Positions 25,851 through 64,000 of a DNA stretch of 64,000 nucleotides are shown piece after piece; within the stretch, counting starts at the first letter, position 1; each line of letters begins with the position of its first letter. A program made the position numbers and the translations under genes. Below the pieces are notes generated by a model. The model was not told where the DNA came from. It was given only the letters and a program-made list of their open reading frames with translations, and searched no databases. Where the stretch lies: positions 11,718,001 through 11,782,000 of the forward strand of contig NC_135256.1 of NCBI RefSeq assembly GCF_964204865.1, in the 5' to 3' direction. This DNA comes from Styela clava (Eukaryota).

Positions 25851-28800
25851 TCATATATCATCCATTTCCTTTCTTTTTCTTCTGTATGCCTTTTCTGAAA
25901 ATCTACATTTGGTTGCACCACATTCACATGTGAAATTTTCACATTTTTCATCCCAGAATCCAGAACCATAATCAAAGCACAGCTGTTCACCTACTGCAAT
26001 ATCTTTCATGGCAAAAAAGGCAATTCGAGGAAAATTACTATCTTGATGATCGAAAAAGAAACGAACTGGAACCAAATTTGGCTCACAGTGATGATTGAGG
26101 TAGCGTGATACATTTCCATAAGATCGTCCATCGATACAATAAGAGCCACCCGGTTTATTATCAAGATCAAACAAGTAGAAGTCATCATCACGAGCGTCAC
26201 CATCAGCAATGACCTCACCAATGTATTCACAAACAAATGATCCACGTGGGATTGGTTCTAATGCTCGAACACCCCAGCCAATATTAGGAGTTCTAAATAC
26301 TTGAATGCGGAACCTTACACCACCATTTTGAATTACCCGATTCCTGCAAGATCGGGAGCACTTACATAATGGGTTACATTCATAAATAAAAGGTGGATTT
26401 TTGAAATTAAATGAAGGCAATAATCGACCAGATGCATCATACCAACATTGTCCACTTTGTTTTCCACACTCACATGATGTGCAATCCTGTGTGCATTTGC
26501 ATGAAGTCATGGTAGGCATAATAGCATTTACATTTGTGTATTTGTAAATATTTTTGGAAATGTATAAAAATTCATGAGGTGGACTGACAGGACATGGAGC
26601 TTCATCAACAGCATTAATGCATGAGATTGCTATATTTTCTTTTCCTCTTGATATATCAGCTGAAAGTAATCGTTCACGATCAAGTGGTTCAAAACCTTTG
26701 TGATCTGTAATTGCATTTCGCGTAGCCGCGTTCATGAGAAGTGCAACTTGGCATAATGAAGGTTCTTTTGCACATTGTGCAGGGAAGCGACCTTCATTAT
26801 TCTTGATGCGGGGATTGGCACCCCATGCAAGAAGCAAAACAACACATTCACGATTGTCTTCACGAGCAGCAATATGTAATGCAGTATCACCAAGAATATT
26901 TTGATGATCTATATTGCAATTTTTTTTCAAACACATCAGTAAAATCTTTTTGTTTCCTGCTAAAGCTGCCCACTGCAAGCAAATATTACCTTCTTGGTCC
27001 ACAGTATGCATATTGGCATTATAATACATCAAGCATTGAGCGGTAGATGTACGTTTATGCTCCGCTGCCCAAACTAAAGGAGTCCATCCCCCTTCATCCA
27101 AGCAGTTTATTTGATTTTTGCTGCCATATTTCATTAATGTTAGACATGACTCGAGTCTCCCATTTTTGGCGGCATGATGGAGTGGCACCATTCCTTCAGA
27201 GTCGCTATGCACCAAACTTGTATTACAAGTAATTAGATATTTGACGATGTCAAGTCTGTTTTGCTGTTCTGCATAAAAAAGAGGAGTCTTACCATCTTCA
27301 TCGTGGACATTGACATCTGCACCAGCAGTAACAAGCAAATGAACAATTTCCAAGCTATCACGAGCAACAGCTTCATGCAGTGCTGTCCTCTGGTTGGAAC
27401 TGTTACGAGCATTTGGGTTGCCACCTGTTCCACACAACAATTGTAGAACTTTAACAGCATCTCCTTGTTTTACAAGCTGAATTAAATTTTTCGCTTGAAA
27501 TCGAAGTTTCTTTGGTAAGTCTGTTTCTAAGCTTTGAATCAAAATATCCAAGTTCTCACGATCTGGCATTAGTTTAGTATTGTCTTGAAAAAGCATAAAT
27601 TCAGGAAAAGGTTTTGTGATTCCCGGAATACGAATAACACAATTAGGATAACATGATTGTTTCAACTTTTCAGGCGACTTTTCAATAATTTCTGACTGCT
27701 CTTCTTCGTATTTTTTCAGAAAATCGGCACTTGGATTAACAGAGACTTCCTGAACATTCGACATAGGGCAACCACAATGAGGACAATCCATGCTATGTCT
27801 CATTAGCACTAGACAATTTCGATGAAATCGGTGTTGATGTTGGGGAGTGCTGTTGCATACAAGAAATGTGCCACCTGCACAAAAAGTGCCACAGCCTGGA
27901 CAACACTCATGTTGTAACATGCGAGCTCGATGTTCGCTGCACAATCCATGAGCAGGAAGATTTTTAGAAGCTCTCATCATGTACGGCTCAGAAACATTAT
28001 TCATGCAACCAGTTAATCTGCCATCAATGTTATCGATTGCCATACATGTAATTTTGTGATGTGATGGATTAAGAACATACTGGGACTTAACAACACAAAT
28101 ACAGAGTGGAGTGGCACCAAGCATACTCTCCATATCATGATATAGGGTTTGCATATCAGCAGATAATGATGCAGTTCCACGAACTGTTTTATAAGTTATT
28201 TTACTGGATGGTAGATTGCTTACTTTATCAACAACACTTCCATTGTTTGGCTCTGGTGTGTTCATTTCATTCTGCAGTGAATTGCTTGAAAACATAGACG
28301 TATTTTTTGAAATGTTTTCAGATGAGAAATCAACACTAGAAATTGAATTACCGATATTATCCTCTCGACGTCTCTTAATCTCCGATTCTTGATTTGAAGA
28401 ACTTGTAGCGTGTTTGCGCTTTGACTCTATCGATGATACTTTTATGTCCGATCTTTCATCGGCCTCGTTGATGTTCGAATTTGGTGTTTCTGGCCTCTTA
28501 TCGCCATCAAAATCGGCTATATCAGGACTTGGAGTTATTAAATGTTCTGAGCTTCCGCTGATTTCCGAAATGGCAATTTCAGCACTGTTTGTGTGAATTG
28601 GACTATTCTCCTTTTCAGACAAACTTATATCGCTGTTCTTTGTAATATCATCATCATCATCTGAAGATATGACTATAGCTTCACTCGTGTTTGCATTTTG
28701 CAGCTCATGCAAAGATTCTGACTTAACATACAATGGGGAATTAGGATCCTTTTCAGCTTCTTGTTTGATTTTCATTCTAGCTTGAACCTGGGTGAGATCA

Positions 28801-29306
28801 GAAATATACTTGGTGCATTTCATAAGTTGATCATTACACTCCATTCTTGAGAGTTCAAGAAAAACTGAATCCCAGTCAACTTTGCGTTCACTAGCAATAA
28901 TTCGAACTATTGTGCGAAACTTGGACATTTGTTTATTACTGATTGGATCATCAGCAGGTATAATTGACAAGCGGCGATTTGCAAGTTCCTTGGATTCTGG
29001 ATCGAAATAAGGGGTCGGATGAGATGAACTTTGCATTCCGCATAGTTTTCGTATTCTTCTTGCAGTCTGAACATCAGTTGTCACCCAAATTACAGGACAT
29101 CCCCTGCTTACATATCCTTCCAAAAGCTGGATACCACTTGTCGGAATAACAAATTTAATAGGTTCATTTCTTTTATGCTCCAGGACAACTTTGAATTTCA
29201 TTGAATATTTGGTAAATTTTAGATTTGAATTAGATATTGCAGCAGGAAATGATTTCATTGATCCAATTCTTATTGTTCGAAATGGAATTTCAAATTTCGT
29301 CTGCAT
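25851..29306 (-). CDS. G9a/GLP (EHMT1/2)-like H3K9 methyltransferase, single-exon CDS, with SENP6/7-like N-terminal domain
   Basis: EHMT Cys-rich region ([22 protein letters not shown]...HRFH...CPHCG), ankyrin repeats ([24 protein letters not shown]), pre-SET, SET ([27 protein letters not shown], FDYG), post-[11 protein letters not shown]. Confidence 0.95.
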   Translation of the reverse strand: [1151 protein letters not shown]

Positions 29307-43000: not shown

Positions 43001-44809
43001 AATACTACTGCAGAATATAATTCATTATAAAAGAAAATACACCTATTATGTATAAAAATGCTTTAAATAAACCTGGAAGGGCGCTTGATCCATTCAGGTT
43101 GTTGCTCCAATAAACACCACTTCGCTACAGCCTCATGGTAACATGTCGAACTCATGCCCGAGGTTGGACAAAGGCACGAAAATTCCCCATTATCTTTATT
43201 GAAAGAAACTCTTACCCTCTTCAATGGTGCAAAATATTGAATTTTTTCAGTGTAAACGGAAAAATAGATTGTTCTTGTTTCAAAACCCATTGTTGAAAAA
43301 TCAACAAGGGCTACAAGAGTGCAGCAATCCTTTTCACTGATTTCCTTCATATTTTTGCACCATTGAACCGACGAATCATTCAATATATTAAATTCCCTTA
43401 GTCGGTTTAGCGATGACAGTTGCAGTTTGTTTGTCGTTAAAATTGAAGATTCAGAGATAGAGTCCAAATGTCGACATTGGATTCCTGGATTGACTGTTGA
43501 AATGGCTTTGATAATTGAAATACAGTCGTCATCAGTGCACATAATTTTTTGGTTCAATGTGTGCTTTTGAACATGAATTGGAGCAAGTGGGCCAGAATCA
43601 CTTTGAGCAACCATATAGATTCCATTGAATGTGTCAACGCATACGCTCGGTAAAAGCTGAGTTGCATTGTGTTTAAGTTGAGCATGTCGCATCAATGACG
43701 ACTGATGCCTAAAGCGCTTGTCACAAGGTATGCATTGAAAGTTGAAAGTACCTGTAAAGTAAAAGTATGTAAACGAACAAGGTCTAAAAATGTGAAAAAA
43801 ATATCGAATGAAAATGAATCATGTAAAAGTGGTAAAGAAATAGATACAAATCACAAAATTTCAATGCACGAGTTTTCTTGACATACAATAAACAATTATT
43901 TATGCTCTCATATCTATAAGCGGACACCAACTCAATACCTAATACTTGCTAAATATCCATTAGAACATCTTTTCAATCATTAGCTTACCTTCACATAGAC
44001 TTTCTGAACTTTTGTTATTAGAATCTATGTCCATATCCCTGACTTCTTCACTTTCAATCACACCCAAACAATCTACACAAAACATTGAAATTCCAAAGTT
44101 ACTGTGTTATAGCTAGGTACTCTATTTGCAAGAAATAAGCCACAAAATAGTTTTAACCCGAACAACAGCCCGAAAGTTTATTACTATCGTGTATTTTGTT
44201 TTTTAAGTTTGGCCCAAGCCTCATTTAATTGGGCTTGTGTTTTTGTGTGCGTGCTGGTGGGCAGGCACATGAGATACTTCATGTTTTAAACTTTTTTGTA
44301 GGTTTTGCTTGCCCTCCAGAATTCTCCATTTTAAATTTAGGTTTGTTATGGAGTTTTCGAAATAAACTATCTATCTATCTAACCCTTACTCTTAGTAAGC
44401 CTCCTGTGGTCAATCATAGAATTTCTCCGTCCAAATATTTTTTCACAGGAGGGACAATGATAGTGACTCCTGGTCAAAGCACTTGTTCCTCGCTTCATAC
44501 AATCTCTTCTACAAGGCATAATGAAAGCTAAAATATTTGAAGATATACCGACTTATAAAATGACCAGTCATCACAACGAAAATATTCAGTATTCATAAGC
44601 TGTACCAGTAATACTGTATACATACCTCTTTCATCCCCATTGATGATATGAACAGCATATTTGATATGTTGAGTTTTCAGGTGGTGTTGAAAGCCACCTG
44701 GTGTTGTAAATGATACTCCGATACATAGTATGCATTGGTAAAAATCATTCACTTTTATGCACAAATCATCAAAATTTTCTGATTTTGTCTTAAAATAAGT
44801 ATCTGCCAT
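34090..44809 (-). CDS. Zisupton multidomain transposase (C2H2 fingers, SWIM, CxC, SAP-like, KDZ/HMGXB3-like core, Ulp1/C48 SUMO protease, PHD), many exons
   Basis: C2H2 CILC...HHLKTQH; SWIM FSCLCP...CYHEAV; core CLKCGIYPTVLICDGNWK, CPHGICYYMKYLLRQESARDYID, IISDIA, LCDRFH, NTSVAEQEN; Ulp1 triad GNHWTL / IYDPVG / QEDGFNCG; PHD CVGC...VECDGCERWCHQYC...FFCEHCT* (stop at 34090). Full exon chain not verified. Confidence 0.85.
42225..42865. mobile_element. hAT-type MITE in an intron of the Zisupton gene
   Basis: TIR CAGAGGTGGCCAAC ... GTTGGCCACCCCTG; 8-bp TSD GGCTACAA (42217-42224, 42866-42873). Confidence 0.9.
44162..44380. repeat. ~220-bp repeat ending in (TATC)n; other copies at 44986-45201 (inverted) and 46738-46953 (direct)
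   Basis: Near-identical sequence ACAACAGCCCGAAAG...AAACTATCTATCTA in three places. Confidence 0.9.
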
Positions 44810-44985: not shown

Positions 44986-46953
44986 TAGATAGATAGTTTA
45001 TTTCGAAAACTCCATAACAAACCTAAATTTAAAATGGAGAATTCTGGAGGGCAAGCAAAACCTACAAAAAAGTTTAAAACATGAAGTATCTCATGTGCCT
45101 GCCCACCAGCACGCACACAAAAACACAAGCCCAATTAAATGAGGCTTGGGCCAAACTTAAAAAACAAAATACACGATAGTAATAAACTTTCGGGCTGTTG
45201 TACTCTCTTTCAACAATTACGTTGATAATGACCAATACCTACAACCTAATGCAAAGATAATGTGGGGAGTGGAATGTAATAAATTTGCGACGATAGTCAT
45301 ACTCATGAAGCCATGAAAGCTTTAAGAAAAACCAAGCCATGAAAAACTACACTGATTGCTAGATTGGGCATTGCGGAAAAGGTGATAAGTGGTTTAATAT
45401 ACAAACAAACGCAAAACCATGGCGGCAAATTCGGTGTGCGGACACTCATAAAAGCAATTATTAGGAAAAACACTAATCACACGTGAGCAGGTCTGTAGCC
45501 TAATTGATACATTGACGTGGCCAACATTGTTAAAACAGTACGGTACCGGTATACACACAGAGAGAACAAATCAAAAATATGCCACTAAATGAATGTTTAA
45601 AAATGTTACACTGCAAACTATTTACACATATATAGTTGAGTACTCAGTATTCAAGCAGAATTTCTAGAAATAGCAGTATATCATACTCTTTGTCACAAAA
45701 TAAAATATCTGAATCAATCCCTGTTGTATTCATCTTTCGATTCTGTTATGATGTCCGTATGTTGCCTTTATGCTGCCATGTAATTTCATATTTCGGCCTT
45801 GTTGATATTCCTTAAGTGCTGGTTCATTGTTGTCAATCTAATCTTTCTGCGCCGTTCAAAAATGCGACCGCACCCGGCGACTGCCAAACACAAACTTTAA
45901 ATCCAATCTTTTATCCATAAACTTCTTTAATTCCGGTGGATGGGCCTTGATCATGTTGATATCACGAGATACAAATCTAATAGTAAATACCGAAACACAC
46001 AGCGCGTAGCATTCTCAGTCCAACAGCATTGATTGATCTTTCATCTAACAGAGCAACAAAAACACGTCCGACCCAGACGGCAGTCTGAAGAGTGCTTGTA
46101 TCTGTGTAAATGAACAATGAACCAGCACTTAAGGAATATCAACAAGGCCGAAATATGAAATTACATGGCAGCATAAAGGCAACATACGGACATCATAACA
46201 GAATCGAAAGATGAATACAACAGGGATTGATTCAGATATTTTATTTTGTGACAAAGAGTATGATATACTGCTATTTCTAGAAATTCTGCTTGAATACTGA
46301 GTATTCAACTATATATGTGTAAATAGTTTGCAGTGTAACATTTTTAAACATTCATTTAGTGGCATATTTTTGATTTGTTCTCTCTGTGTGTACACCGGTA
46401 CTGTTTTAACAATGTTGGCCACGTCAATGTATCAATTAGGCTACAGACCTGCTCACGTGTGATTAGTGTTTTTCCTAATAATTGCTTTTATGAGTGTCCG
46501 CACACCGAATTTGCCGCCATGGTTTTGCGTTTGTTTGTATATTAAACCACTTATCACCTTTTCCGCAATGCCCAATCTAGCAATCAGTGTAGTTTTTCAT
46601 GGCTTGGTTTTTCTTAAAGCTTTCATGGCTTCATGAGTATGACTATCGTCGCAAATTTATTACATTCCACTCCCCACATTATCTTTGCATTAGGTTGTAG
46701 GTATTGGTCATTATCAACGTAATTGTTGAAAGAGAGTACAACAGCCCGAAAGTTTATTACTATCGTGTATTTTGTTTTTTAAGTTTGGCCCAAGCCTCAT
46801 TTAATTGGGCTTGTGTTTTTGTGTGCGTGCTGGTGGGCTGGCACATGAGATACTTCATGTTTTAAACTTTTTTGTAGGTTTTGCTTGCCCTCCAGAATTC
46901 TCCATTTTAAATTTAGGTTTGTTATGGAGTTTTCGAAATAAACTATCTATCTA
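44986..46953. repeat. Large inverted repeat: arms 44986-45831 and 46113-46953, 281-bp spacer
   Basis: Arms are reverse complements apart from one 5-bp indel and a few substitutions. Confidence 0.93.
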
Positions 46954-47576: not shown

Positions 47577-50468
47577 ATGTCAAAAAGACCCATTGATGAC
47601 CAGCCGTCTACTGATATAAAGAAAGTAGCAATAGGTAAAGTAAAAATGCAGGTAATAAAATATTTTTGAAGAACCAAAAAATAAACAATGCAGATCTGTT
47701 ACAACTGTCAGACTGTTCAATACACTGATACAAGCATTCTTCCGTCCAATTAATATTAATAACAAGTTTGGGAATCCTATGTCTGTATCAATAAGCCATT
47801 GTGATTGCATTTTTATTATATTTTTAAGAAAAATTTGAAGGGTAATTCCATAGGAATGTATGAGTAAGAGCATTTAATTCAAATCTTTCTGCATCCTTTT
47901 AGACATTTCAGGAACTGTTTCAATTTTTTTCGATCAGGGTTATCCACATTGAAAGGATATGTTGCAGAAAGAAAAGGAGAGCGAGCAGATATGCAAGATG
48001 CTCATGTAATATTGGATAATTGTACTGCAGACTTCACACAATTTGCGGATAAAATGTATGTGATAGGCCCTAGTTAGATAAAAAATATGGGATTTTGATA
48101 TTTTTAAAAAAAGATTAAAATTAAAACATTCTGGGGAATACATTGATAAAAACTTGTTCGACTCCTGTTTTTAATTGGTACATTGATTTAGGTTTAAATT
48201 TTGATTCATGTGCGTCAATGTTTGTAGTAATTTTTTTGTCTGTTTTTTTGTTATTTTCATTGTCTTCTTTACGGGTAGGCTACTGCAGTACTGGTTTATT
48301 AAAAAATTTCCCAATTTGTTTGTTGCCTTGATAAAGAATAGTTAATACTAGTTCAGTATACTTGAGCAATATTTCTAATTCGACTGTTAATGAGGATTAA
48401 CTATTTTTGTTTTACAGTCAAAGAGTTGCATATTATGCTGTATTTGATGGCCATGGTGGTCATCGTGCTTCAAAACATTGTGCAAATCATTTACATCAAC
48501 ATTTGATGCAAAAATTACCTAAATGTAAGTTTAGTTATGGTTAAATTTAATGGAAAAAATATGGGATCAACTGAAGAATCTCTCCCCGGACCCGCCTGGG
48601 GAGGAGATTCTTCAGTTGGAATACAACCAAACTAATCTGCCAATGTAATGATTTTGGGGGTATTTATGCGTAATATTTGGCAAATAAAGTAATGGATTGT
48701 TACCTGTTTGGATATAGTCTTTGTATATCGTGAGTATTAATTTCCCGATCTGCTCTGACACATTCTATTTTCCATCTCAACTGGACTAACTGAATAATCT
48801 GGTATTTCCAAGTGGAATTTATGAATTCATAACAATCGAACTGATGCTGTATTTTATATTTTTAGATGAAGTTAACAATTTTCCGAAAGAAATGAAAAAA
48901 ATGATTTTTCAGTCGTTCAAATCAGTTGATGAAGAATTCTTAAAAGAAGCTTCTGCTCAGTAAGTTGTATTCACATGAATATGTGGACGAATTTTTCATG
49001 ATTCCAAGATGTTTTAGCTCAAATTCTTAGTGAATTTAGTGAAATAGAATAGGTGAACTGCATGTGAACAAGCTAAATATATATTTTTTCTTTAGGAAAC
49101 CTGTTTGGAAAGACGGAACCACAGTCTGTTGTATTTTATTGTTGGATGACACCATGTACATCATGAATCTTGGTGATAGTAAGGTTGAAGTTATAGCTTT
49201 AAATGTCAAAAGAGGACCATCTGATTAAATTCAGCCAAAAATGCCGTAATTGCTCATGATGACGTTTCAACGTAATATGTTCCATCAGATGGTGTTATTT
49301 TGACTCATTGAGGTTATTGGAAATGTATGATAATTTCAATGATATTTATTGTTCTTAACAGGCCATTTTGTGTAGATATAATTCAGAACATAAAAAACAT
49401 GTATCAGTGTCTTTGAGTAAAGACCATAATCCTACTGATTATGATGAGAGGCAGAGGATACAAAAACTAGGAGGTCAAGTCAGGTATGAACCTTTACCAC
49501 TTACTGATTGTAGAGTTTATTTATAGTTGATTCTAGAATCTTAAAAGCGAACACTTTTGAACATATCTTCTCTGTTTCAGGAATAATCAATCTTTTTCTC
49601 ATGTGTGAGCTCATGATAATTTTCAAAATATTCATTTCTAATAGCTCTGTGAGCTGTCCAATGCATTGTTACTTGCTATGAATTATTAGTTCCATCAGAC
49701 CTGACAAAGATGATTGCGCTAGAATATTTGATGTTTTACTCTACTCATAGTCTTGTGACTCTCACCCAATTAATGCAAACAAGGTTAAATATAAAGCTGG
49801 AACATACAAGCCTTATAGGTTATTAAGTAAATCTAAATATGCTTGATGCTGTAATTTCTGGTTTTTCAGGGAAGGGAGGGTTATGGGTATCTTAGAAGTG
49901 TCAAGATCAATTGGAGATGGTCAGTATAAAAGATGTGGAGTAATCAATACACCTGATGTTAAACGTTGCCAATTAACTTCAAATGATAGATTTTTATTGA
50001 TTGCGTGTGATGGATTGTGGAAAGTTTATAGTCCTGATCAAGCTATAGAATTCATTCTTAATGTACTGCAGGTCAGTTTCTGTTTTGTTCGCTTTATTCC
50101 GGAGTAAGTAAATATTCTCCATATTGCCAAGAGGTACATTTGTCTATTCATATATGTTTCGTCCTTTCACTGCTTTTGTTAAGAGTGTTTGAATCGACTA
50201 ATCATAGTGATATCTATTTCATCATTTTTATTAGAATTACAGTGATAACATAGATATCCTTTTGTCAGTTTTTAGTGATTTAATTTAATTTTAATAAATT
50301 GCAATTTATCTATTTCAGGATAACTCTGTACAAATTCCAGAGGGATCAACAAAAACTCTTGAAGAGACAAGATTTGAAGCAGCATGCAATAAACTAGCTA
50401 GTGAAGCAGTTCGGAAAGGAAGTGCAGATAATGTGACTGTTTTACTTGTGTCTGTTTCGAAACTTTAA
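47577..50468 (+). CDS. ILKAP: Integrin-linked kinase-associated PP2C phosphatase, multi-exon
   Basis: LKGYVAERKGERADMQDAH, AVFDGHGG, WKDGTT, NLGDSKA, GILEVSRSIGDGQYKRCGV, IACDGLW, EAVRKGSADNVTV; stop TAA at 50466-50468. Start codon uncertain (N-terminus shorter than vertebrate ILKAP). Confidence 0.92.
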
Positions 50469-51339
50469 TGAACATGTTCCATAGCAGTACTGTGAATGGC
50501 TCTGTTCAGAGTTTCAAAATGCACTTTTTTCATCATTCCATTGAAAAGTAAAACTCATTGTGATGCCGATAGGAACAGGATGTTTTAATGTCTTTTCACG
50601 AATAAGGGCAATTTTTTTGTTTGGTTTTTCGGGAAATAAATGGCTTTATTGCAATGATGTTGGGGGATGGCCGACGGCGCACAGGAACTTTGGAATAGTC
50701 TGATCTCAGCATTTCGTTTAATGTTTTCAAATACATCTGGCCTTGACTCTTATCATGTGTGTGTTGGACTCACAATAAACGTCGATGATCAAACACTCCC
50801 AGTAAAACATTTTAGGGTTTTATATTCATGTATGGTAATATGAATCTCTGCAGATAGAAGATATACCTGAAGTGTATGTTCAGTCGCCGCACCTAGCCGG
50901 TCATTAAAAATCTGGTCAATAAATCACGCCGGAAAAAAGTAATATGTTTTTAAAAAAATTTCCTGTAATCAGTATGGCCGTGGTGTCATTTCATCTTCAA
51001 TACACTCTGAAACGCCACATTGAAACGTTCATCACAGGTCAAAACTTTCCACAAAAGGCTTGCGATATTTATTCCTTGCATGTTTGAACGGGAAATAAAC
51101 GGTGGCATGAACTCGTTGCCCATGTTTAAGAAAAGTTGTGAGCCGCAAAAAAAATTTTCTTAATAAGACTGTTGGTGAACTAAGAGTATGACTTAAAATA
51201 AATAACATTTCACGGTCAAACAATGCTTTTGGAAAATCCATTTATCTGCAACATTAAATGGTCCTTTCACGACCATTACGCAGAGCGCTATTTTGCAAAG
51301 AAAGAGTGCGAACCTAATCACGTAAACTAATAATGCTAG

Positions 51340-54300
51340 TATAGGGAGAAAGAGATGAGCTGCTGATGATGGGATAAAGACTATCACCCTATATGTTTAA
51401 TTTCGATTCCCGCGTTATTGTTTTGACACGCGTTATGGAATGTGACTCCAATCTGGACTCCTTCAGACGATAATAAGCACACAGTGTTGATGCTAATCGT
51501 TGTTGTATATTATAGGAAGATGCACAATCCAAATTCCGAAAACAGATAAAATTGAGACACACTTAACTCTTAACACAGTAAATCAGGAGTGAATCAAAAC
51601 CCATCACACTTAACGCAGTAAAACAGAAGTGGATCTAAACACAATATTATGCAGCCCTCTCGGCAAGCCGGAACGATACGTCATCAAATTGGTCGATACG
51701 AGAAAGGCAGTACATGTAATCAGTAATCAGTGTTGCTACAATAAAATGACCTATTGTGGGAAATGGAACACACTATTAAAATGAAAGGGTTATATACATT
51801 ATAATTCATAGTTAAACAATGCACATTCGCTACACAATTCCCCCTCGACAGTAAAAAAAATTAACTTGATAATTTTTTAAATTTTGGAGTCCGGCCGCCG
51901 AGAGATGAAGTGAAAGAAAACAAAATAACACGAATTAATAAAAGATATTAGTACGATATGATGAGTAATGGTCAAGGTATACAAGAGAATATACGCCGTT
52001 TACGAGAGAAAACAAAATACGAGAAAAAAAATTCAAAGGGTCTCTCTCTATGTTGCTTAGAAATGCTGAACATTTTAAAATGGAATTGTAACGAAATAGT
52101 AAACAAAATGGCGACAATACTTGAAAGAAAGGACCTAAAAGAATGTAAAACACTTTGATGTTTAAAGGAAGGGCACGAGAATAAACAAATGGCGGATTTA
52201 GTATCTGATAATTACACCGAAATTGGTTTGGTGTTTGAGATTGTAAAATTGGCGTTAGAGGTTATTTGAAATAAAATAATAAGAAAAAATCCTGTAACGT
52301 GAATAATGAGAAATTTGACAGATTATTGAACCATTGCATCCCTGAAATTGAACCTGAATCAAATTCTGTATGAAGTAAAAGAACTCGTGTTATCTAAAAA
52401 ACAAGGCATTGATTAATAACGGGTAATTACACAGAAAAGAAAACTGACACTGCACAATTATTTTATTTGTATGTTTTTTTTTTTTTTTTGTTATATTCAA
52501 ATTCTTATAGTAAGGTGTTTTGATGTTTTATAGTGGATAACAATAAGAGAAAAGTAATAAAATACAAAACGATTAAAGTGATAAAATACAAGATGGTTAA
52601 TAACGAGGCGACACATTGCGAGATACACACCATATACAATTCGCAACGACCGCCGGAATCGAGTTGACTTAATAGGTTGGGGATAAATTGAAAGGTTGTT
52701 ATAGTCAAACTTTCGACTCCATTTGAGCTTGGGCGCTCGCATCTGAGAAGTTGTTAGCATTTTCCATCGATTCATCGTCAATTTCGACATCGGATAACTG
52801 GTGTATTTCTTGTTGTTCGTTGAATTGTACTACGGTTTGTCGTGATATGCTGAGAAGTCGTTGTATTGGTTGCAGCAATCCATTTGTTAATGTACGGCGA
52901 ACGGACATTCGGCAGTTTGGCAAGCTTCGATAGATGAAATAAAGCAGGGGTACAACGAATAAAGCGTAAATGAGGCCAAATAGCGACCACGCCTTTATGA
53001 CGCAATCTGACAATGACTTGGCAGTTGTCATTTACGTTTAAAACAAAGCCACTGTATGCACAATAGACTTCGTTTGATTCAATGCAATTTCGTTAGTTGA
53101 GAACAAGTTTCGAAGGTTTGCAATGATCGGTATTTCCAATCGGTAAGATTGCCCGATGCATTGTAATATAACAAGAATTCGGTAGTGTTGAATTTCGGAA
53201 AGTTGCGAGCTCTACAAGCTTTCGTATCTTCAACAGCCCAAACAAATGTAAACACACCTTTCCGGCAAAAACCAGAGTTGGGTGCGCATTGGCTGAGGTA
53301 TTTGAACGTGTTTTTGGTTGCGCTTGACGAAGAACAGCCATGAAATGGTTCGCCAGTAGGTCGTTGTACGTTTACAAATCTTGGTATCAACATTTGTAAG
53401 AAGGGTAGATGCCTCGTAGATGTTTGCTGAACAATTCTTCATTGTATGAAGTTTGTGTCGATTACAAATAGCTAGTTTGCGTATGTCGTAAGTCTGTCCA
53501 TGTAAGGATTTGTGACATAATTTCAGTGGTACCTCAACGGCTTGCGTTCTCATACAAAGCATGACAAAGCAAAGTAAAGTGTAGTGAAATATGGTCATCA
53601 GATATCCATCTGAAATTCGCTTGATAGAATAAAGTCTTTGCTTAAATGGCGTGGGAGTTTTCTCAGCCTTCGCGGCCGATTTGATTATTGCTGATTTGAC
53701 ATTTGCGGAGACGGTCCCAGACGATGCGCTGAATTTGGAAAGGCTGCCGTCTTCATTGTTGAATTACTGAATTGCCATCATGAAGTTGATTTTCCAGTGA
53801 TTGAATTGATTTTTTCAATTTGTTAAATAGAATTTCCCAGCGGTTGCGTGTCTTTACACGTCGGAGGTCATCAAAATATAGGGATAAAGAGATGCTGCTG
53901 GTTGTGGGGATAAAGACTATCACCTATATATGTTTAAGTTCGATTCCCGCGTTATTGTTTTGACACGCGTTATGGAATGTGACTGCAATCTGGACTCCTT
54001 CAGACGATAATAAGCACACAGTTTTGATGCTAATCGTTGTTGTATATTATAGGAAGATGCACAATCCAAATTCCGAAAACAGATAAAATTGAGACACACT
54101 TAATTAACACAGTAAATCAGGAGTGAATCAAAACACATCACACTTAACGCAGTAAAACAGAAGTGGATCAAAACACATCACACCTAACGCAGTAAAAACA
54201 GAAGTGGATCCAAACACATCACACCTAACGCAGTAAAAACAGAAGTGAATCTAAACACAATATTATGCAGCCCTCTCGGCAAGCCGGAACGATACGTCAT

Positions 54301-54450
54301 CAAATTGGTCGATACGAGAAAGGCAGTACATGTAATCAGTAATCAGTGTTGCTACAATAAAATGACCTATTGTGGGAAATGGAACACACTATTAAAATGA
54401 AAGGGTTATATACATTATATTTCATAGTTAAACAATGCACATTCGCTACA
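51340..54450 (-). mobile_element. Non-autonomous LTR retroelement (LTRs 51340-51834 and 53877-54450)
   Basis: Two direct repeats of 495 and 574 bp; 4-bp TSD CTAG (51336-51339, 54451-54454); minus-strand PBS TGATGACCTCCGACGTGT (53873-53856) resembling the tRNA-Trp PBS; PPT GAGGGGGAAT next to the left LTR. Confidence 0.9.
52705..53781 (-). pseudogene. Decayed envelope/viral-type membrane glycoprotein in three frames
   Basis: Hydrophobic signal-like segment FHYTLLCFVMLCMRTQA; Cys-rich ectodomain pieces with N-glycosylation sequons (NCS, NTT, NAS, NLT); TM helix WSLFGLIYALFVVPLLYFIY followed by a basic then acidic tail; frameshifts and an early stop. Confidence 0.65.
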
Positions 54451-55212
54451 CTAGAAATCTTGCCGATGCCGCAAATCTTGCCGCAATAGCACAAATAGAT
54501 AATTTTTTAAGTTCCACTTTTGTAATGTGGCACCAAGTTTACTCTCAATTAGCCTACAGCCATGACAAATCCACCTCTCTTCCTATCTTGCTTTTAGTCG
54601 AGCTTAGAACGGAATATCATATTTACCAGGTGGTAAGAAAAGATAGTAGGAAGGCTTAATAGTGACGATTTCCCATCCGATTACTAGTCCAAGTCGAGTT
54701 ACCAACCAGTTACTTGTTCAGAAAGCAAGACACGAAATTAGACCATCCTACGAGTCACTGCAAACGGCAATTTGCAGGGGTTATGCCCTCTCCCCTAAAA
54801 GAAATTTCAACATTTTTTATTCCGATTTTCTAACATTTGCAGTGAAACGTAAATTCGTACGCATCTACCGACACCATTTTTTGCACAATTTGCTGAAACT
54901 GACTTTTCCTGGCTTGCTATCAATATTCCTTTCACCAAATTAACCAACCAAAATAGATGAAAATGCGCGCATGTATAAATCTTGGATAACTTCAATAGCA
55001 AAGTACGATTAAGTCTATAGAGAGATATTTTTAAGATATTGGTAGATATCAGTGAGTGCTTTTATCTATTCTTGTTCGTAGCAAAAGGCACGTGCATCGT
55101 ATTACGTCAAATTGCCCAGTCAGAATTGTCAAGTTAGATGCATGAAGATGTGGGTTAGAGAGAGAGAGAGAGAGAGATCCAAAGTGAAATAACAGTCATC
55201 GTAATAATAAAA

Positions 55213-55460
55213 AACAAGAGAGATATGCTCAAATATATGGGCACGTAGCGCCACCCAATGGCAATAATTTTGATGACGTCATAGCGAGAAAAAAAGTAAT
55301 AGCCTTCTGGAGAAAAATTTTATCTTTAACCACTGAAAATTTCAAAGCAATTGGTCCAGTATTCGAAAAGAAAAGCGATTTTTTAATGATAATGACGAAA
55401 GAAAATAACATTAACAACAAAATTTTGAAACGATCGTTAGTGCCACTAAACGTGTCCAAT
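55213..55460. mobile_element. Short Helentron-associated (HINE-like) element
   Basis: Begins AACAAGAG; subterminal IR GGGCACGT ... ACGTGTCC; internal AAATTTC...GGTCCAGT motif; A-rich flanks. Confidence 0.45.
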
Positions 55461-55947
55461 AATGACAATTATTTATTTTGGTACAGACAGGAGGGAGTGA
55501 TACGACCAGGCGGTCTTGGAAGTGAAAACCCATCCCTTCACGCTATTATGTTTAAGATTCACAATTTCAGATGACTAAATATAAAGGTGGAACATACTAG
55601 AATTTAATAAACGGAATGGTCATTTTTTTGTTTGCAGAGCAATGTCAAAAGTAAGATATGAGACAATTAAATAACAGATAAAAATTGTAAGCAATTATAA
55701 CAGTATGAGTTGTTATAACATCAAAATACAATGCAGGGTTGAAGTCTAGCATTTTCGTTATAAAAAAATATGAATATAAAGATAAAGAGAACCACTGACA
55801 AGATGAGTGGTACAGAAATATATGTATATGAGAAAGATTTGTAAAAAATCTCGAATACAAGTGCTAGAGAAATATATCAAGTCAAAGGATATTAATGCAG
55901 AACAATTTGGCCTAAACACAAATACAATGTTAAAGTATGATTTAGTG

Positions 55948-58900
55948 CTGGATGGGATCCCGCCGTCTCTTTCAATGCAGCGATAGCTGCCACAAAAACC
56001 AGGCACCACGGGCCAGGATGATTAGGTTGTGTATACAGAATAGGGGTACAACAGGGTATGTTACGGAGTTCCGCAAGTGCTAGAGACTCGCCGGTGGTGT
56101 CAAAAGATGGGGGACGATCCCAAACTACTAATTAAAATTTTTCAGCACGATCGGGCCAGAGGAAGTTGGTCAAATAGGGCATTTAGTGGCCCAAAATCTA
56201 GGATGTGTGACATTGCTATTTCCATGCTGTCAATCAAGTCACGCTAGAGTGATTTTGGGGTTTAGAAGCCGTTTAGCTGCGTTTCCGGGCCGGGAAACGG
56301 TTTGCCCGGGTATTGGGAATTTTTCCAAACATGTTTGGGGGTGGGGGAAGTGCCCCCGCCCCCCCAGTGACGAGAAAACGTGTAGAAAGCCACGCCCACT
56401 TAGGTAATATGGTTTTTGGGCGATTAGGAGCACTTGGAATCGGTTTTCGGGCAAAGTGATGCATAAATATCGAAGGGACTAATTAATAGAATATATTACC
56501 ACCCCAACTTTGGGGATTCCCCTACCACGTAACGGTCCAGTGACTTCGGAACGTTGCGCTTGGGAATTGAGATATTGAGAAAAAAAAATACATAGGTAGG
56601 TTGAGAAAGTTTAGTTTAATACTTTTTTCAAGGAATTTTTTTGCTCCCGTGCCTCCGTCACGGTCTAGTGATTTTGGCCTTTTGCCGGCTGTTGAGAGTT
56701 CCTATCCAGAATCTAAAGGCATGGGCATGATCAGAAAAATTATTCCAATCAGGTATTAGCGGAATTTTTTTTCCCGTAGGCTTCAGTTACGGTCCAGTAA
56801 TTTTAGGCCATATCTCGAGAACGGTGATAGATAGGGGTCTCGTATTTGGGTTATAGAAGCTAGTTGGAGTGTAGTTTATGCCTATAAAATTTCGTCACGG
56901 TCGAGTGATCACGGACCTTAAAATTGATAAAAGTAGACTCCCGGTCATACAAACAGTACTGTTTATGTTAGGGGGGGGTAAATGGCGTCGGTCGGATCAT
57001 GCCGCGATCCGTCCGACGCAACGGATGGCGGCCAGAGCGTCACGGACATACCCGTCATGGTCCCGAACCAACCATTTGTGCGCCCGCGGCCCCCTCGCGG
57101 CTGCCGCAGGCAGACGTCTATTCTGGATGTTCTCCCGCCCACGTCTCGTGATGGGTGGCGATAGCCACAACAAAAAACAAAAGCCAGCGGCCAGAGATAT
57201 TAATGGAAGGTCTATTACACGAAGCGTTTCATCAGGGTATGTTACGGAGAACCACAAGTCCTAGAGACAAGCGGGTGGTGTCAAAAGATAGCTGAGGGTC
57301 CCAATATACCAAAGAAAATTTTTCAGAAAAATCGGGCCAGAGGAAGTGGGCCAAATCGAGATTTTAGTGGCCCAAAAGTAAGGATGTGCGACATTGCCAT
57401 TTCTAGGCTGTCAATCAGGTCACGCAAGAGTGATTTTGGGGTTTAGAAGCCGTTTAGCTGCGTTTCCGGGCCGGCAAACGGTTTGCCCGGGTATTGGGAA
57501 TTTTTCCAAACATGTTTGGGGGTGGGGGAAGTGCCCCCACCCCCCAGTGACGAGAAAACGTGTAGAAAGCCACGCCCACTTAGGTAATATGGTTTTTGGG
57601 CGATTAGGAGCACTTGGAATCGGTTTTTGGGCAAAGTGATGCATATTTATCGAAGGGACTAATTAATAGAATATATTACCACCCCAACTTTGGGGATTCC
57701 CCTACCCCGTAACGGTCCAGTGACTTCGGAACGTTGCGCTTAAGATTTGAGATATTGAGAAAAAAAAATACATAGGTAGGTTGAGAAAGTTTAGTTTAAT
57801 ACTTTTTTCAAGGAATTTTTTTGCTCCCGTGCCTCCGTCACGGTCTAGTGATTTTGGTCTTTTGCCGGCTAATGAAGGGTTTTATCGAGAATCTAAAGGC
57901 ATGGGCATGATCAGAAAAATTATTTCAATCACGTATCAGCAAAATTTTTTTTCTAGTAGCCTTCAGTTACGGTCCAGTGATTTTAGGCCATATCTCGAGA
58001 ACGGTAATAGATAGGGGTCTCGTATTTGGGTTATAGAAGGTAGTTGGAATAAAGTTTATGCCTATAAAATTTCGTCACGGTCGAGTGATCACGGACATTA
58101 AAATTGATAAAAATAGACTCCCGTCCATACGGACAGTACTGTTTATGTTAGGGGGGGTCAATGGCGTCGGTCGGATCATGCCGCGATCCGTCCGACGCAA
58201 CGGATGGCGGCCAGAGCGTCACGGACATACCCGGCTTGGGCCGAACCGACCATTTGTGCGCCCGCGGCCTCCCTCGTCGTATGCCGCAGGCAGACGTCTA
58301 CACTGGATGGGATCCCGCCGTCTCTTTCAATGCAGCGATAGCTGCCACAAAAACCAGGCACCACGGGCCAGGATGATTAGGTTGTGTATACAGAATAGGG
58401 GTACAACAGGGTATGTTACGGAGTTCCGCAAGTGCTAGAGACTCGCCGGTGGTGTCAAAAGATGGGGGACGATCCCAAACTACTAATTAAAATTTTTCAG
58501 CACGATCGGGCCAGAGGAAGTTGGTCAAATAGGGCATTTAGTGGCCCAAAATCTAGGATGTGTGACATTGCTATTTCCATGCTGTCAATCAAGTCACGCT
58601 AGAGTGATTTTGGGGTTTAGAAGCCGTTTAGCTGCGTTTCCGGGCCGGGAAACGGTTTGCCCGGGTATTGGGAATTTTTCCAAACATGTTTGGGGGTGGG
58701 GGAAGTGCCCCCGCCCCCCCAGTGACGAGAAAACGTGTAGAAAGCCACGCCCACTTAGGTAATATGGTTTTTGGGCGATTAGGAGCACTTGGAATCGGTT
58801 TTCGGGCAAAGTGATGCATAAATATCGAAGGGACTAATTAATAGAATATATTACCACCCCAACTTTGGGGATTCCCCTACCACGTAACGGTCCAGTGACT

Positions 58901-61900
58901 TCGGAACGTTGCGCTTGGGAATTGAGATATTGAGAAAAAAAAATACATAGGTAGGTTGAGAAAGTTTAGTTTAATACTTTTTTCAAGGAATTTTTTTGCT
59001 CCCGTGCCTCCGTCACGGTCTAGTGATTTTGGCCTTTTGCCGGCTGTTGAGAGTTCCTATCCAGAATCTAAAGGCATGGGCATGATCAGAAAAATTATTC
59101 CAATCAGGTATTAGCGGAATTTTTTTTCCCCGTAGGCTTCAGTTACGGTCCAGTAATTTTAGGCCATATCTCGAGAACGGTGATAGATAGGGGTCTCGTA
59201 TTTGGGTTATAGAAGCTAGTTGGAGTGTAGTTTATGCCTATAAAATTTCGTCACGGTCGAGTGATCACGGACCTTAAAATTGATAAAAGTAGACTCCCGG
59301 TCATACAAACAGTACTGTTTATGTTAGGGGGGGGTAAATGGCGTCGGTCGGATCATGCCGCGATCCGTCCGACGCAACGGATGGCGGCCAGAGCGTCACG
59401 GACATACCCGTCATGGTCCCGAACCAACCATTTGTGCGCCCGCGGCCCCCTCGCGGCTGCCGCAGGCAGACGTCTATTCTGGATGCTACCCCGCCACGTC
59501 TCGTGATGGGTGGCGATAGCCACGACAAAAATCAAAAGCCAGCGGCCAGAGATATTAATGGAAGGTCAATCACAGACTCCGATCCAACAGGGTATGTTAC
59601 GGAGAACCGCAAGTCCTAGAGACAAGCGGGCGGTGTCAAAAGATAGCTGAGGGTCCCAATATACCAAAGAAAATTTTTCAGAAAAATCGGGCCAGAGGAA
59701 GTGGGCCAAATCGAGATTTTAGTGGCCCAAAAGTAAGGATGTGCGACATTGCCATTTCTAGGCTGTCAATCAGGTCACGCAAGAGTGATTTTGGGGTTTA
59801 GAAGCCGTTTAGCTGCGTTTCCGGGCCGGGAAACGGTTTGCCCGGGTATTGGGAATTTTTCCAAACGTGTTTGGGGGTGGGGGAAGTGCCCCCACCCCCC
59901 CAGTGACGAGTAAACGTGTAGAAAGCCACGCCCACTTAGGTAATATGGTTTTTTGGCGATTAGGAGCACTTGTAATCGGTTTTGGGGCAAAGTGATGTAT
60001 AAATATGGAAGGGACTAATTAATAGAATATATTACCACCCGAACTTTGGGGATTCCCCTTCCCCGTAACGGTCCAGTGAGCTCGGAATGTTGCGCTTGAG
60101 ATTTGAGATATTTAGAAAAAAAAATACATAGGTAGGTTGAGAAAGTTTAGTTTAATACTTTTTCCAAGGAATTTTTTTGCTCCCGTGCCTCCGTCACGGT
60201 CTAGTGATTTTGGCCTTTTGACGGCTAATGAAGGGTTTTATCGAGAATCTAAAGGCATGGGCATGATCAGAAAAATTATTCCAATCACGTATCAGCGGAA
60301 TTTTTTTTCCCGTAGGCTTCAGTTACGGTCCAGTGATTTTAGGCCATATCTCGAGAACGGTGATAGATAGGGGTCTCATATTTGGGTTATAGAAGGTAGT
60401 TGGAGTGTAGTTTATGCCTATAAAATTTCGTCACGGTCGAGTGATCACGGACTTTGGAATTGATAAAAATAGACTCCCGTCCATACAGATAGTACTGTTT
60501 ATGGTAGGGGGCGTCAATGGCGTCGGTCGGATCATGCCGCGATCCGTCCGACGCAACAGATGGCGGCCAGAGCGTCACGGACATACCCGGCTTGGGCCGA
60601 ACCAACCATTTGTGCGCCCACGGCCCCCCTCGTCGTGTGCCGCAGGCAGACGTTTTCTTCTGGATGGGATCCCGCCGTCTCTTTCAATGCAGCGATAGCT
60701 GCCACAAAAACCAGGCACCACGGGCCAGGATGATTAGGTTGTGTATACAGAATAGGGGTACAACAGGGTATGTTACGGAGTTCCGCAAGTGCTAGAGACT
60801 CGCCGGTGGTGTCAAAAGATGGGGCACGATCCCAAACTACTAATTAAAATTTTTCAGCACGATCGGGCAAGAGGAAGTTGGTCAAATAGGGCATTTAGTG
60901 GCCCAAAATCTAGGATGTGTGACATTGCTATTTCCATGCTGTCAATCAAGTCACGCTAGAGTGATTATGGGGTTTAGAAGCCGTTTAGCTGCGTTTCCGG
61001 GCCGGGAAACGGTTTGCCCGGGTATTGGGAATTTTTCCAAACATGTTTGGGGGTGGGGGAAGTGCCCCCGCCCCCCCAGTGATGAGAAAACGTGTAGAAA
61101 GCCACGCCCACTTAGATAATATGGTTTTTGGGCGATTAGGAGCACTTGGAATCGGTTTTCGGGCAAAGTGATGGATAAATATCGAAGGGACTAATTAATA
61201 GAATATATTACCACCCCAACTTTGGGGATTCCCCTACCCCGTAACGGTCCAGTGACTTCGGAACGTTGCGCTTGAGAATTGAGATATTGAGAAAAAAAAA
61301 TACATAGGTAGGTTGAGAAAGTTTAGTTTAATACTTTTTTCAAGGAATTTTTTTGCTCCCGTGCCTCCGTCACGGTCTAGTGATTTTGGCCTTTTGCCGG
61401 CTGTTGAGAGGTCCTATCCAGAATCTAAAGGCATGGGCATGATCAGAAAAATTATTCCAATCAGGTATCAGCGGAATTTTTATTCCCGTAGGCTTCAGTT
61501 ACGGTCCAGTGATTTTAGGCCATATCTCGAGAACGGTGATAGATAGGGGTCTCGTATTTGGGTTATAGAAGCTAGTTGGAGTCTAGATTATGCCTATAAA
61601 ATTTCGTCACGGTCGAGTGATCACGGACCTTAAAATTGATAAAAGTAGACTCCCGGTCATACAAACAGTACTGTTTATGTTAGGGGGGGGTAAATGGCGT
61701 CGGTCGGATCACGCCGCGATCCGTCCGACGCAACGGATGGCGGCCAGAGCGTCACGGACATACCCGGCATGGTCCCGAACCAACCATTTGTGCGCCCGCG
61801 GCCCCCTCGCGGCTGCCGCAGGCAGACGTCTATTCTGGATGTTACCCCGCCACGTCTCGTGATGGGTGGCGATAGCCACAACAAAAATCAAAAGCCAGCG

Positions 61901-64000
61901 GCCAGAGATATTAATGGAAGGTCAATCACAGACTCCGATCCAACAGGGTATGTTACGGAGAACCGCAAGTCCTAGAGACAAGCGGGCGGTGTCAAAAGAT
62001 AGCTGAGGGTCCCAATATACCAAAGAAAATTTTTCAGAAAAATCGGGCCAGAGGAAGTGGGCCAAATCGAGATTTTAGTGGCCCAAAAGTAAGGATGTGC
62101 GACATTGCCATTTCTAGGCTGTCAATCAGGTCACGCAAGAGTGATTTTGGGGTTTAGAAGCCGTTTAGCTGCGTTTCCGGGCCGGGAAACGGTTTGCCCG
62201 GGTATTGGGAATTTTTCCAAACGTGTTTGGGGGTGGGGGAAGTGCCCCCACCCCCCCAGTGACGAGTAAACGTGTAGAAAGCCACGCCCACTTAGGTAAT
62301 ATGGTTTTTGGGCGATTAGGAGCACTTGGAATCGGTTTTGGGGCAAAGTGATGTATAAATATGGAAGGGACTAATTAATAGAATATATTACCACCCGAAC
62401 TTTGGGGATTCCCCTTCCCCGTAACGGTCCAGTGAGCTCGGAATGTTGCGCTTGAGATTTGAGATATTTAGAAAAAAAAATACATAGGTAGGTTGAGAAA
62501 GTTTAGTTTAATACTTTTTCCAAGGAATTTTTTTGCTCCCGTGCCTCCGTCACGGTCTAGTGATTTTGGCCTTTTGACGGCTAATGAAGGGTTTTATCGA
62601 GAATCTAAAGGCATGGGCATGATCAGAAAAATTATTCCAATCACGTATCAGCGGAATTTTTTTTTCCCGTAGGCTTCAGTTACGGTCCAGTGATTTTAGG
62701 CCATATCTCGAGAACGGTGATAGATAGGGGTCTCATATTTGGGTTATAGAAGGTAGTTGGAGTGTAGTTTATGCCTATAAAATTTCGTCACGGTCGAGTG
62801 ATCACGGACTTTGGAATTGATAAAAATAGACTCCCGTTCATACAGATAGTACTGTTTATGGTAGGGGGCGTCAATGGCGTCGGTCGGATCATGCCGCGAT
62901 CCGTCCGACGCAACAGATGGCGGCCAGAGCGTCACGGACATACCCGGCTTGGGCCGAACCAACCATTTGTGCGCCCGCGGCCCCCCTCGTCGTGTGCCGC
63001 AGGCAGACGTTTTCTTCTGGATGGTCTCGCAACCTGTCGCACTTTAGTGCGAAGGCACAGTCTGAATCAGAAAACGTTGCACGTGAGGTGGAAGTTAAAA
63101 TTCTATGCGTGGGAGACCGATTGATGAGCATTTCCACTATGTAGGGTAGGGCTGATGAGGTAGGTGATTAACACGTTAGTAAGGTATCCCTGTCCGCATG
63201 ACGCAGAAAATTTTTGGGAACGATCGGGCCAGAGGAAAGGGGTCAAAACGGGGTTTTTGTCGCCCGAGGCTGTTCATTGGTCAATCAGCTGTCAATCAAG
63301 TCACGCTGGAGTGATTTAGGGGTTTAGAGGCCGTTATGCTAAGTTTCCGGAGCCGGAAAGCGTTTGCCCGAGTATTAGGAATTTTTCCAAGTCTTTTTGG
63401 CGGTGGGGGCTGTGCCCCCACGCCCTCTGTGGTGAGAAAACTCGTGCAAAGCCACGCCCACTTAGGTTATATTGTTTTTAGGGAATTCTGAGGCATGTGA
63501 ATGGGGTTTTGGGCCAAGATTTGCCTAATTCTCAAAGAGTATAATTATTTGAAATTTTCTTTACTGAAAAATCGGTGTTTCCCCCTCCCAATCGCCCTCC
63601 AGTGGCGTAAGAAGGTTGCGCACTTAAAAATGGAGCTATTGAGAAATGAAATAGATAGGTATGGTTGGAAAAATTAGTTTAACATTGTTTTGAAGAAATT
63701 TTTGTTCTCTTACTCCCCAGTCACGCTTTAGTGATTTTGGCTTATTGCAGGCCTCTGAAAGGACATATTGAGAAAGTGAAAGCATGGGCATATTTGGAAA
63801 AATTATTTGAATCCATTTTGAAAGGAATTTTTTTTCTCCAACTCCTCAGTCATGCTCCAGTGATTTTACGTTATATCTCGAGAATGGTAATAGGTAGAGA
63901 TGCCATATTCGGGTCATACAAGTTAATTGAGGTCTAGTTTATGTCAAAAAAAATTCGTCACAGTTGAGTGATCACGGGCCCTAAAATTAATAAAACTTGA
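55948..64000. repeat. Tandem array of ~1.18-kb units with 2.36-kb A/B higher-order period; probably Helentron/HINE-derived
   Basis: Units start with CTGGATG at 55948, 57123, 58303, 59479, 60660, 61835 and 63017 (order A B A B' A B' C); the array continues past the window end. Confidence 0.92.

Follow-up and report, generated by a model that had tools for sequence, protein, structure and literature searches.

The closest described relatives of the locus considered here are intact gag-pol-env Ty3/gypsy elements with an envelope of the herpesvirus glycoprotein B (gB) type, found in the ascidians Ascidia, Aplidium, and Clavelina (Chary and Hayashi, PMC13524379). Members of their Tunicata_C3 group of errantiviruses are approximately 8-9 kb long with gag, pol, and env in open frames, and Clavelina element 1 carries an exact tRNA-Trp primer site (PMC13524379). 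For Styela clava, the available part of the same report gives 3 pol and 10 env matches in pol-env order, with no intact copy and no statement of the envelope type, and the string "splic" is absent from its main text. The screen of that study accepted only loci in which pol neighbors env and the LTRs stand 5 kb or more from each other (PMC13524379). As described in that part of the paper, it could therefore not have reported a 3.1-kb form lacking pol.

Multicopy deleted proviruses that need a helper are known from birds (EAV-HP/ART-CH). In bovids, the consulted portion of one survey counted 82 LTR-env-LTR proviruses in cattle, 30 in zebu, and 27 in yak (PMC3879100). These avian and bovid forms belong to the Retroviridae and have class I envelopes, whereas the Styela element described below has a class III envelope and its parent was likely a Ty3/gypsy element. 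TRIM, LARD, and TR-GAG elements, as summarized in the accessible text of bioRxiv 10.64898/2026.03.01.708851, share with it LTRs, primer site, polypurine tract, absence of enzymes, and mobilization in trans; they are mostly from plants and either non-coding or gag-bearing, while the Styela element is from an animal, contains an env remnant, and at 3.1 kb lies between TRIM and LARD in length. The Tor elements of Oikopleura are likewise tunicate LTR elements with env, and some of them make an env mRNA from the 5′ LTR, according to the portion of PMC4402516 consulted; Oikopleura elements are listed with an F-type envelope in a table of PMC13524379, in contrast to the gB type of the Styela element. 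Mosquito BEL/Pao elements with a chuvirus-like glycoprotein (cited in PMC13524379) also combine a class III glycoprotein with an LTR element, but in another superfamily and another host, and the only reverse transcriptase (RT) tied here to a Styela-type envelope follows a protease (P0035, see below). The literature searched, which consisted mostly of titles and the first lines of abstracts and included few subscription journals, listed no LTR family reduced to env, either in ascidians or among gB-type errantiviruses.

The window analyzed, a stretch of 64,000 nt from S. clava, contains a 3,111-nt LTR element on its minus strand with an interior of 2,042 nt (Table 1). A preliminary description had reported paired LTRs, a target-site duplication, a primer binding site, and a polypurine tract around approximately 2 kb, with a coding region that starts at an upstream ATG, meets one in-frame stop, and runs through frameshifts to a transmembrane helix and tail. 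Coordinates could be assigned to each of these features, and both parts of that anatomy hold; the frame that follows the in-frame stop is open from 53763 to 53233 (177 codons).

Table 1. Features of the Styela clava LTR element and its flanks, in window positions.
Feature	Position	Strand	Basis
Target-site duplication, 5′ side, 4 bp	54451..54454		sequence
5′ LTR, 574 nt, TG...TA ends; a 41-nt unit repeated 3.8 times at 54105-54259	53877..54450	-	sequence
Degenerate tRNA-Trp-type primer binding site	53857..53873	-	comparison with the 12-nt tRNA end tabulated in the consulted part of PMC13524379
Leader, 261 nt	53596..53856	-	upstream ATG 53781 in frame with env, stop 53766-53764
Env piece 1: signal peptide, first strands, first fusion-loop hairpin	53300..53595	-	profile 6-105, E 1.1e-19
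Env piece 2, second frame, after ~75-residue loss	53090..53310	-	profile 175-207, E 2e-4
Env piece 3, third frame	53000..53090	-	profile 256-281, weak by score (E 0.14; E 0.047); collinear
Env piece 4: membrane helix and acidic tail, after ~270-residue loss	52705..53000	-	hydropathy, order, by eye
AT-rich 3′ non-coding region, 858 nt	51847..52704	-	sequence
Polypurine tract	51838..51846	-	purine run preceding the 3′ LTR
3′ LTR, 495 nt, TG...TA ends	51340..51834	-	sequence
Target-site duplication, 3′ side, 4 bp	51336..51339		sequence

The two LTRs are identical in 480 of 490 aligned columns, differ in length mainly by two extra 41-nt tandem-repeat units in the 5′ copy, and both end in TA rather than CA. 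The tetranucleotide CTAG stands at both outer ends of the element and coincides exactly with the ends of the LTR alignment; the 4-bp match alone would arise by chance once in 256. Eight of the ten LTR mismatches fall within the last 155 nt (p 0.002), a stretch that also holds three small indels (53877-54030 vs. 51340-51495), and because of this clustering the divergence of the LTRs was not converted to an age. The mismatch-rich end adjoins the degenerate primer site and a patch of leader unlike the high-depth contigs described below; the mismatch cluster and the leader patch may together reflect conversion from another subfamily. Three nucleotides past the 5′ LTR, the stretch resembling a primer site differs from the tRNA-Trp complement by one mismatch and one extra base over the 12-nt end tabulated in the available text of PMC13524379. 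Among 1.84 billion proteins searched by phmmer, the leader had no credible homologue. Past the tabulated 12 nt, we presume that the primer site continues to match tRNA-Trp.

Coding capacity for RT and integrase is lacking, as the preliminary description had noted, and the features expected of a non-autonomous LTR retrotransposon are present: LTRs, a primer site, a polypurine tract, and a target duplication. None of the gag, RT, or integrase families was found when 29 frame pieces of the element were compared with Pfam (4 plus 25 pieces, the latter from 35 stop-to-stop frames of at least 30 aa, where the 10 left out were the shortest plus-strand frames or had already been scanned). The protease-RT part of P0035 had no tblastn match in the window, and an Rfam scan found nothing. 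P0035 itself joins a protease and RT (E 9e-32) to the same envelope family; it is a single 871-aa frame that passes from protease-RT straight into the middle of a gB-type envelope, and is another internally deleted derivative in the gB-type group.

The envelope remnant is a class III (herpes gB/chuvirus-type) glycoprotein, a conclusion on which profile matches, cysteine spacing, a PDB match, and the structural model of a relative agree. The search by phmmer, over the same protein set, returned five rows, of which P0001 (627 aa, E 7e-9) and P0003 are relatives, while P0002, P0004, and P0005 were dropped as repetitive chance matches; follow-on searches added P0006 and 24 more rows, including P0030, named from the ascidian Phallusia mammillata. 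Identity between the remnant and its relatives is 22-36%. A profile of 15 relatives was run on each frame separately, and in a six-frame scan of the whole window its two best rows were env pieces 1 and 2. Alignment of piece 2 to the profile by hhalign covers 178-230 (E 5e-4, probability 31%). In a shuffling test of piece 2, 0 of 200 shuffles scored as high. The cysteine spacing of piece 1 (16, 10, 18) is the same in six of the seven relatives listed; the corresponding values are 6, 16, 36 for piece 2 (6, 16, 39 in relatives) and 7, 12 for piece 3 (6, 11 in relatives). Judged by eye, the cysteines of nine Tunicata_C3 rows, in the part of PMC13524379 consulted, follow the order found in P0001, P0030, and the window pieces. 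Piece 4 was not aligned to the relatives by HMM or hhalign, and its placement is one of order and hydropathy; its membrane helix (mean Kyte-Doolittle 2.1) spans 52989-52933, and the tail extends to 52705.

The fold assignment comes from the relatives. Positions 285-472 of the family profile find herpes gB among PDB sequences (E 7e-8), the Atlas relates P0001 to fusion proteins of Monjiviricetes (0.97), and the P0001 model (pLDDT 63, pTM 0.32) matches both HSV gB (E 7e-19) and mononegavirus glycoproteins of rhabdo-like viruses and a nyamivirus (E 8e-22 to 2e-19), with whole-chain TM scores that are low for all of these matches (approximately 0.2-0.35). The window's own env pieces gave no matches in Pfam, in a PDB sequence search, or in the ESM Atlas; a two-sequence fold (pLDDT 31) was too low for use, and none of five candidates for a longer relative of piece 1 turned up in a word search. 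In a tree of N-terminal regions, piece 1 pairs with P0001 (95/92), on a long branch flagged as unsure. The guess of a class III glycoprotein with internal deletions, made in the preliminary description from pattern recall, is thus well founded. A host-gene origin of the peptide, or a peptide with no likeness to a fusogen, was considered there as a way the guess might fail; both are ruled out by the profile match and the gB-like model of the relative.

Relative to full-length envelopes, approximately 350 of approximately 600 residues are gone: about 75 are missing behind the first hairpin, and a further stretch of about 270 separates piece 3 from the membrane helix. Mapped onto the P0001 model, the first loss would deprive the fusion domain of its return strand, a helix, and its second loop, and the second would remove the long helix at 295-340 and the beta region behind it, which includes the region matching gB by sequence. 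The naming of the fusion loops in that model is our assumption from class III anatomy. The reading frame breaks after approximately 95 residues and changes three times, once at each loss and once between them, and the frame of piece 1 continues out of register to a stop at 53232-53230, giving 121 aa in total without an anchor. Two fusion loops, a central helix, and a membrane anchor in one frame, as class III fusogens have, are not found together in the remnant. It is predicted to be incapable of membrane fusion because the second fusion loop and the central helix are missing and the frame is broken after about 95 residues. The envelope is accordingly predicted to be a passenger, from which at most a secreted fragment of approximately 100 residues could be produced.

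Set beside the Tunicata_C3 errantiviruses, the element shares their host class, envelope type, cysteine order in domains I-II, and LTRs of several hundred bases, and with Clavelina element 1 a Trp primer site, as far as these are given in the accessible part of PMC13524379. Of what characterizes an intact errantivirus, it has paired LTRs with a tRNA primer site and homology to a gB-type envelope, and it lacks gag, a Ty3/gypsy pol with RT and integrase, and an env that runs unbroken through domains I-V and has both fusion loops; in contrast to the published elements, it has an env that is both deleted and frameshifted. The helper type is therefore not an undescribed one, and the Styela element is likely a non-autonomous env-remnant derivative of a published group. 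The suggestion of an undescribed infectious retroelement family is not supported: the portion of the literature consulted already describes gag-pol-env elements of ascidians that carry an envelope of this type (PMC13524379). Overall, the feature is real, and the preliminary description read its anatomy and fold class correctly and over-read its function and novelty.

Read depth bears on whether the deleted form is a single insertion or a family, and four sequencing runs were compared with window positions 49800-56000. In the genomic run (X1), among the matches listed, three contigs have depths of 230 (52770-53216), 210 (53187-53519), and 231 (53490-53741), which is 8.6-9.5 times the median of 24.4 in seven bins of the left flank; low-depth branches without the deletions may lie among 915 loose ends and 86 joints beyond that listing, which the high-copy repeat at 55182-55600 dominated. 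The depth-210 contig spans the first deletion and the first frame break without a gap, and the depth-230 contig spans the second deletion with only two small indels, which lie elsewhere. Because high-depth contigs cross them, both deletions and the first break belong to the common form, while the middle frame break, near 53090, is not common to these contigs. Compared with these contigs, the window copy has 5 differences over 447 letters and 6 over 333. A contig from a second run (X6, contig 20) extends in one piece from the primer site to 53655, and the depth-231 contig of X1 likely also continues to the primer site, as deduced from depth sums (231.3 + 54.6 = 285.9). Just beyond the LTRs the depth drops to that of the flanks, with 24.5 and 36.1 in the adjacent full bins of X1.

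Raw reads of a further run (X21) gave a mean depth of 28.7 over env, compared with 0.8-1.8 in the flanks or an expected 4.6-5.6; this is an enrichment of 26-fold over ten flank bins and of 5-6-fold over the depth expected for a genome of 340-407 Mb, the range of S. clava genome sizes in the consulted part of PMC7540406. Depth over the LTRs was 2.7 times that over env in X21 and higher in X1, and because this exceeds two LTRs per env copy, some LTRs likely belong to solo LTRs or to other interiors. With contigs across both deletions at about nine times flank depth, the deleted form probably represents a family, of approximately ten copies by depth, that multiplied once the losses had occurred; contig depth is not a copy number, the raw-read estimate spans 5-26-fold, and Hi-C reads are biased by cut sites. 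These runs showed no second insertion with a target duplication of its own. The identical layout of the high-depth contigs argues against a one-off deletion after insertion, the event that the preliminary description had set against its satellite model.

Some other observations were made on these runs. X6 carries the label of another organism but is not read as horizontal transfer, as it also holds the unique flank 54482-54838 with three differences. Expression was considered from X5, where contigs of the LTR-leader and of env have depths of 11-20 and flanks are near 0, and was set aside, as traces of multicopy DNA could explain the pattern. Contig 10 of X5 (1285 nt) runs from LTR through primer site to leader, and its remainder may be a different interior or a chimeric transcript. 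Viral contigs and metagenome contigs contained no such locus, and the LTR motif was absent from the metagenome contigs.

The explanation that we favor, with a probability of roughly 60%, is that an errantivirus of the ascidian Ty3/gypsy kind, with gag, pol, and env, was reduced by successive internal losses to a non-autonomous env-remnant element, which a helper then spread to approximately ten copies. A gag-pol-env parent of about 8 kb would have lost gag-pol and two stretches of env, probably by template switching during reverse transcription, leaving a short RNA that kept the signals acting in cis (LTRs, Trp primer site, leader, and polypurine tract). Helper Gag and Pol would then have packaged this RNA, primed it with tRNA-Trp, reverse-transcribed it, and integrated it with a 4-bp duplication, and it would have been copied in trans about ten times. 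The anatomy, the identity of env, its deletions, and the high depth of the deleted form are observed; copy number, the order of events, the helper, and the mechanism are the parts of this account that we infer. The degenerate primer site weighs against it, as do the TA ends of the LTRs, which an integrase may or may not accept. No helper was found: the relatives are only 22-36% identical, and the published screen, in the part of PMC13524379 consulted, gives no intact S. clava copy. Of the env-only satellite proposed in the preliminary description, mobilization in trans by an enveloped Ty3/gypsy helper is retained as the best reading, and envelope as working cargo is given up, with a family form that has neither second fusion loop nor trimer core and leaves its frame after about 95 residues.

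The founder might instead have been a reverse-transcribed spliced env mRNA, in which LTR, primer site, and leader had been spliced to env, followed by the two env losses and spread in trans. Such an origin would fit an env that begins 261 nt past the primer site, retains its full signal peptide, and has an upstream ATG in its frame; the absence of gag and pol without trace would also fit, as would the env mRNA that some Tor elements transcribe from the 5′ LTR in the accessible text of PMC4402516. The upstream frame is, however, interrupted by a stop in the window copy, and the two further losses need a deletion mechanism anyway, so that a third deletion is equally simple; we regard this origin as possible but rather unlikely. 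Multiplication of one deleted insertion at the DNA level, by tandem array or segmental duplication without retrotransposition, would agree with a multiplicity that is evident from depth and not from separate sites, and the clustering of LTR mismatches hints at recombination or conversion between copies. It is made improbable by the single-copy flank depth right outside both LTRs and by the target duplication that the window copy has of its own.

Two further readings would give the envelope a function. Truncated endogenous retroviral envelopes block envelope or receptor in cats and primates, with Refrex-1 as a precedent (consulted portion of PMC9245640), and by analogy the family could be kept for a secreted first-frame env fragment that blocks the helper's envelope or receptor. 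The first frame, open for 177 codons, encodes a signal peptide and the first fusion loop without an anchor, as such a blocker would need; at 1-2% divergence, however, an open frame of this length requires no selection, the fragment would, judged from the model of the relative, amount to half a fusion domain whose strands lack partners, and the Refrex-1 precedent concerns class I receptor-binding domains, which together make this reading very unlikely. That the satellite supplies its helper with a working mini-fusogen is barely tenable: although signal peptide, one fusion loop, membrane helix, and tail are present in order, and one of the three breaks (near 53090) is absent from the high-depth contigs, the gap-free crossing of the first break by the depth-210 contig places the family form out of frame there too, and that form lacks the second fusion loop, the central helix, and the crown. 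A composite of these ideas strikes us as a long shot: a gB-type errantivirus would have given rise to a satellite family from a spliced env mRNA, the family would have shrunk as defective interfering genomes do, and a retained signal-peptide frame would yield a secreted piece of the fusion domain that hinders the helper. If true, the interfering satellite would be an invertebrate, class III counterpart of Refrex-1 on a mobile element.

Under the favored account of an internally deleted derivative spread by a helper, the findings suggest that ascidian gB-type errantiviruses spawn non-autonomous derivatives that are missed by pol-based screens. They also suggest helper activity in S. clava so recent that the copied elements differ by 1-2%, in a species whose reference assembly has no intact copy in the available portion of PMC13524379. 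Should the joint between leader and env prove to be a splice joint, the element would be a fossil record of how gB-type envelopes are expressed. The idea that the element supplies a working fusogen, or stands for a new infectious family, does not survive.

Within the window, a PP2C phosphatase gene ends in a stop approximately 870 nt short of the element, which faces it in opposite orientation. The exons of this gene, which we take to be ILKAP-like from its motifs, extend over approximately 47900-50982 on the plus strand, and a contig of X5 skips the intron 50069-50315 and is thus spliced. On the minus strand, positions 25851-29306 hold an uninterrupted EHMT1-like frame of 1151 aa, identical at 1147 of 1151 residues to a named Styela clava protein. 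Upstream of the phosphatase gene, 44986-45831 and 46113-46953 form an inverted repeat that is close to perfect, its arms about 850 bp long on either side of a 281-nt spacer; a further 218-nt copy lies at 44162-44379. Beyond the 5′ LTR, 55182-55600 is a very high-copy short repeat with poly(A) loose ends, at an X1 depth of 450,000 compared with 24 in the flanks. It is followed at 55941-63644 by a tandem array of approximately 6.5 monomers of about 1.18 kb (GC approximately 47%) in two alternating types, with 84-88% identity between types and 94-100% within them; this array is a dimeric higher-order satellite.
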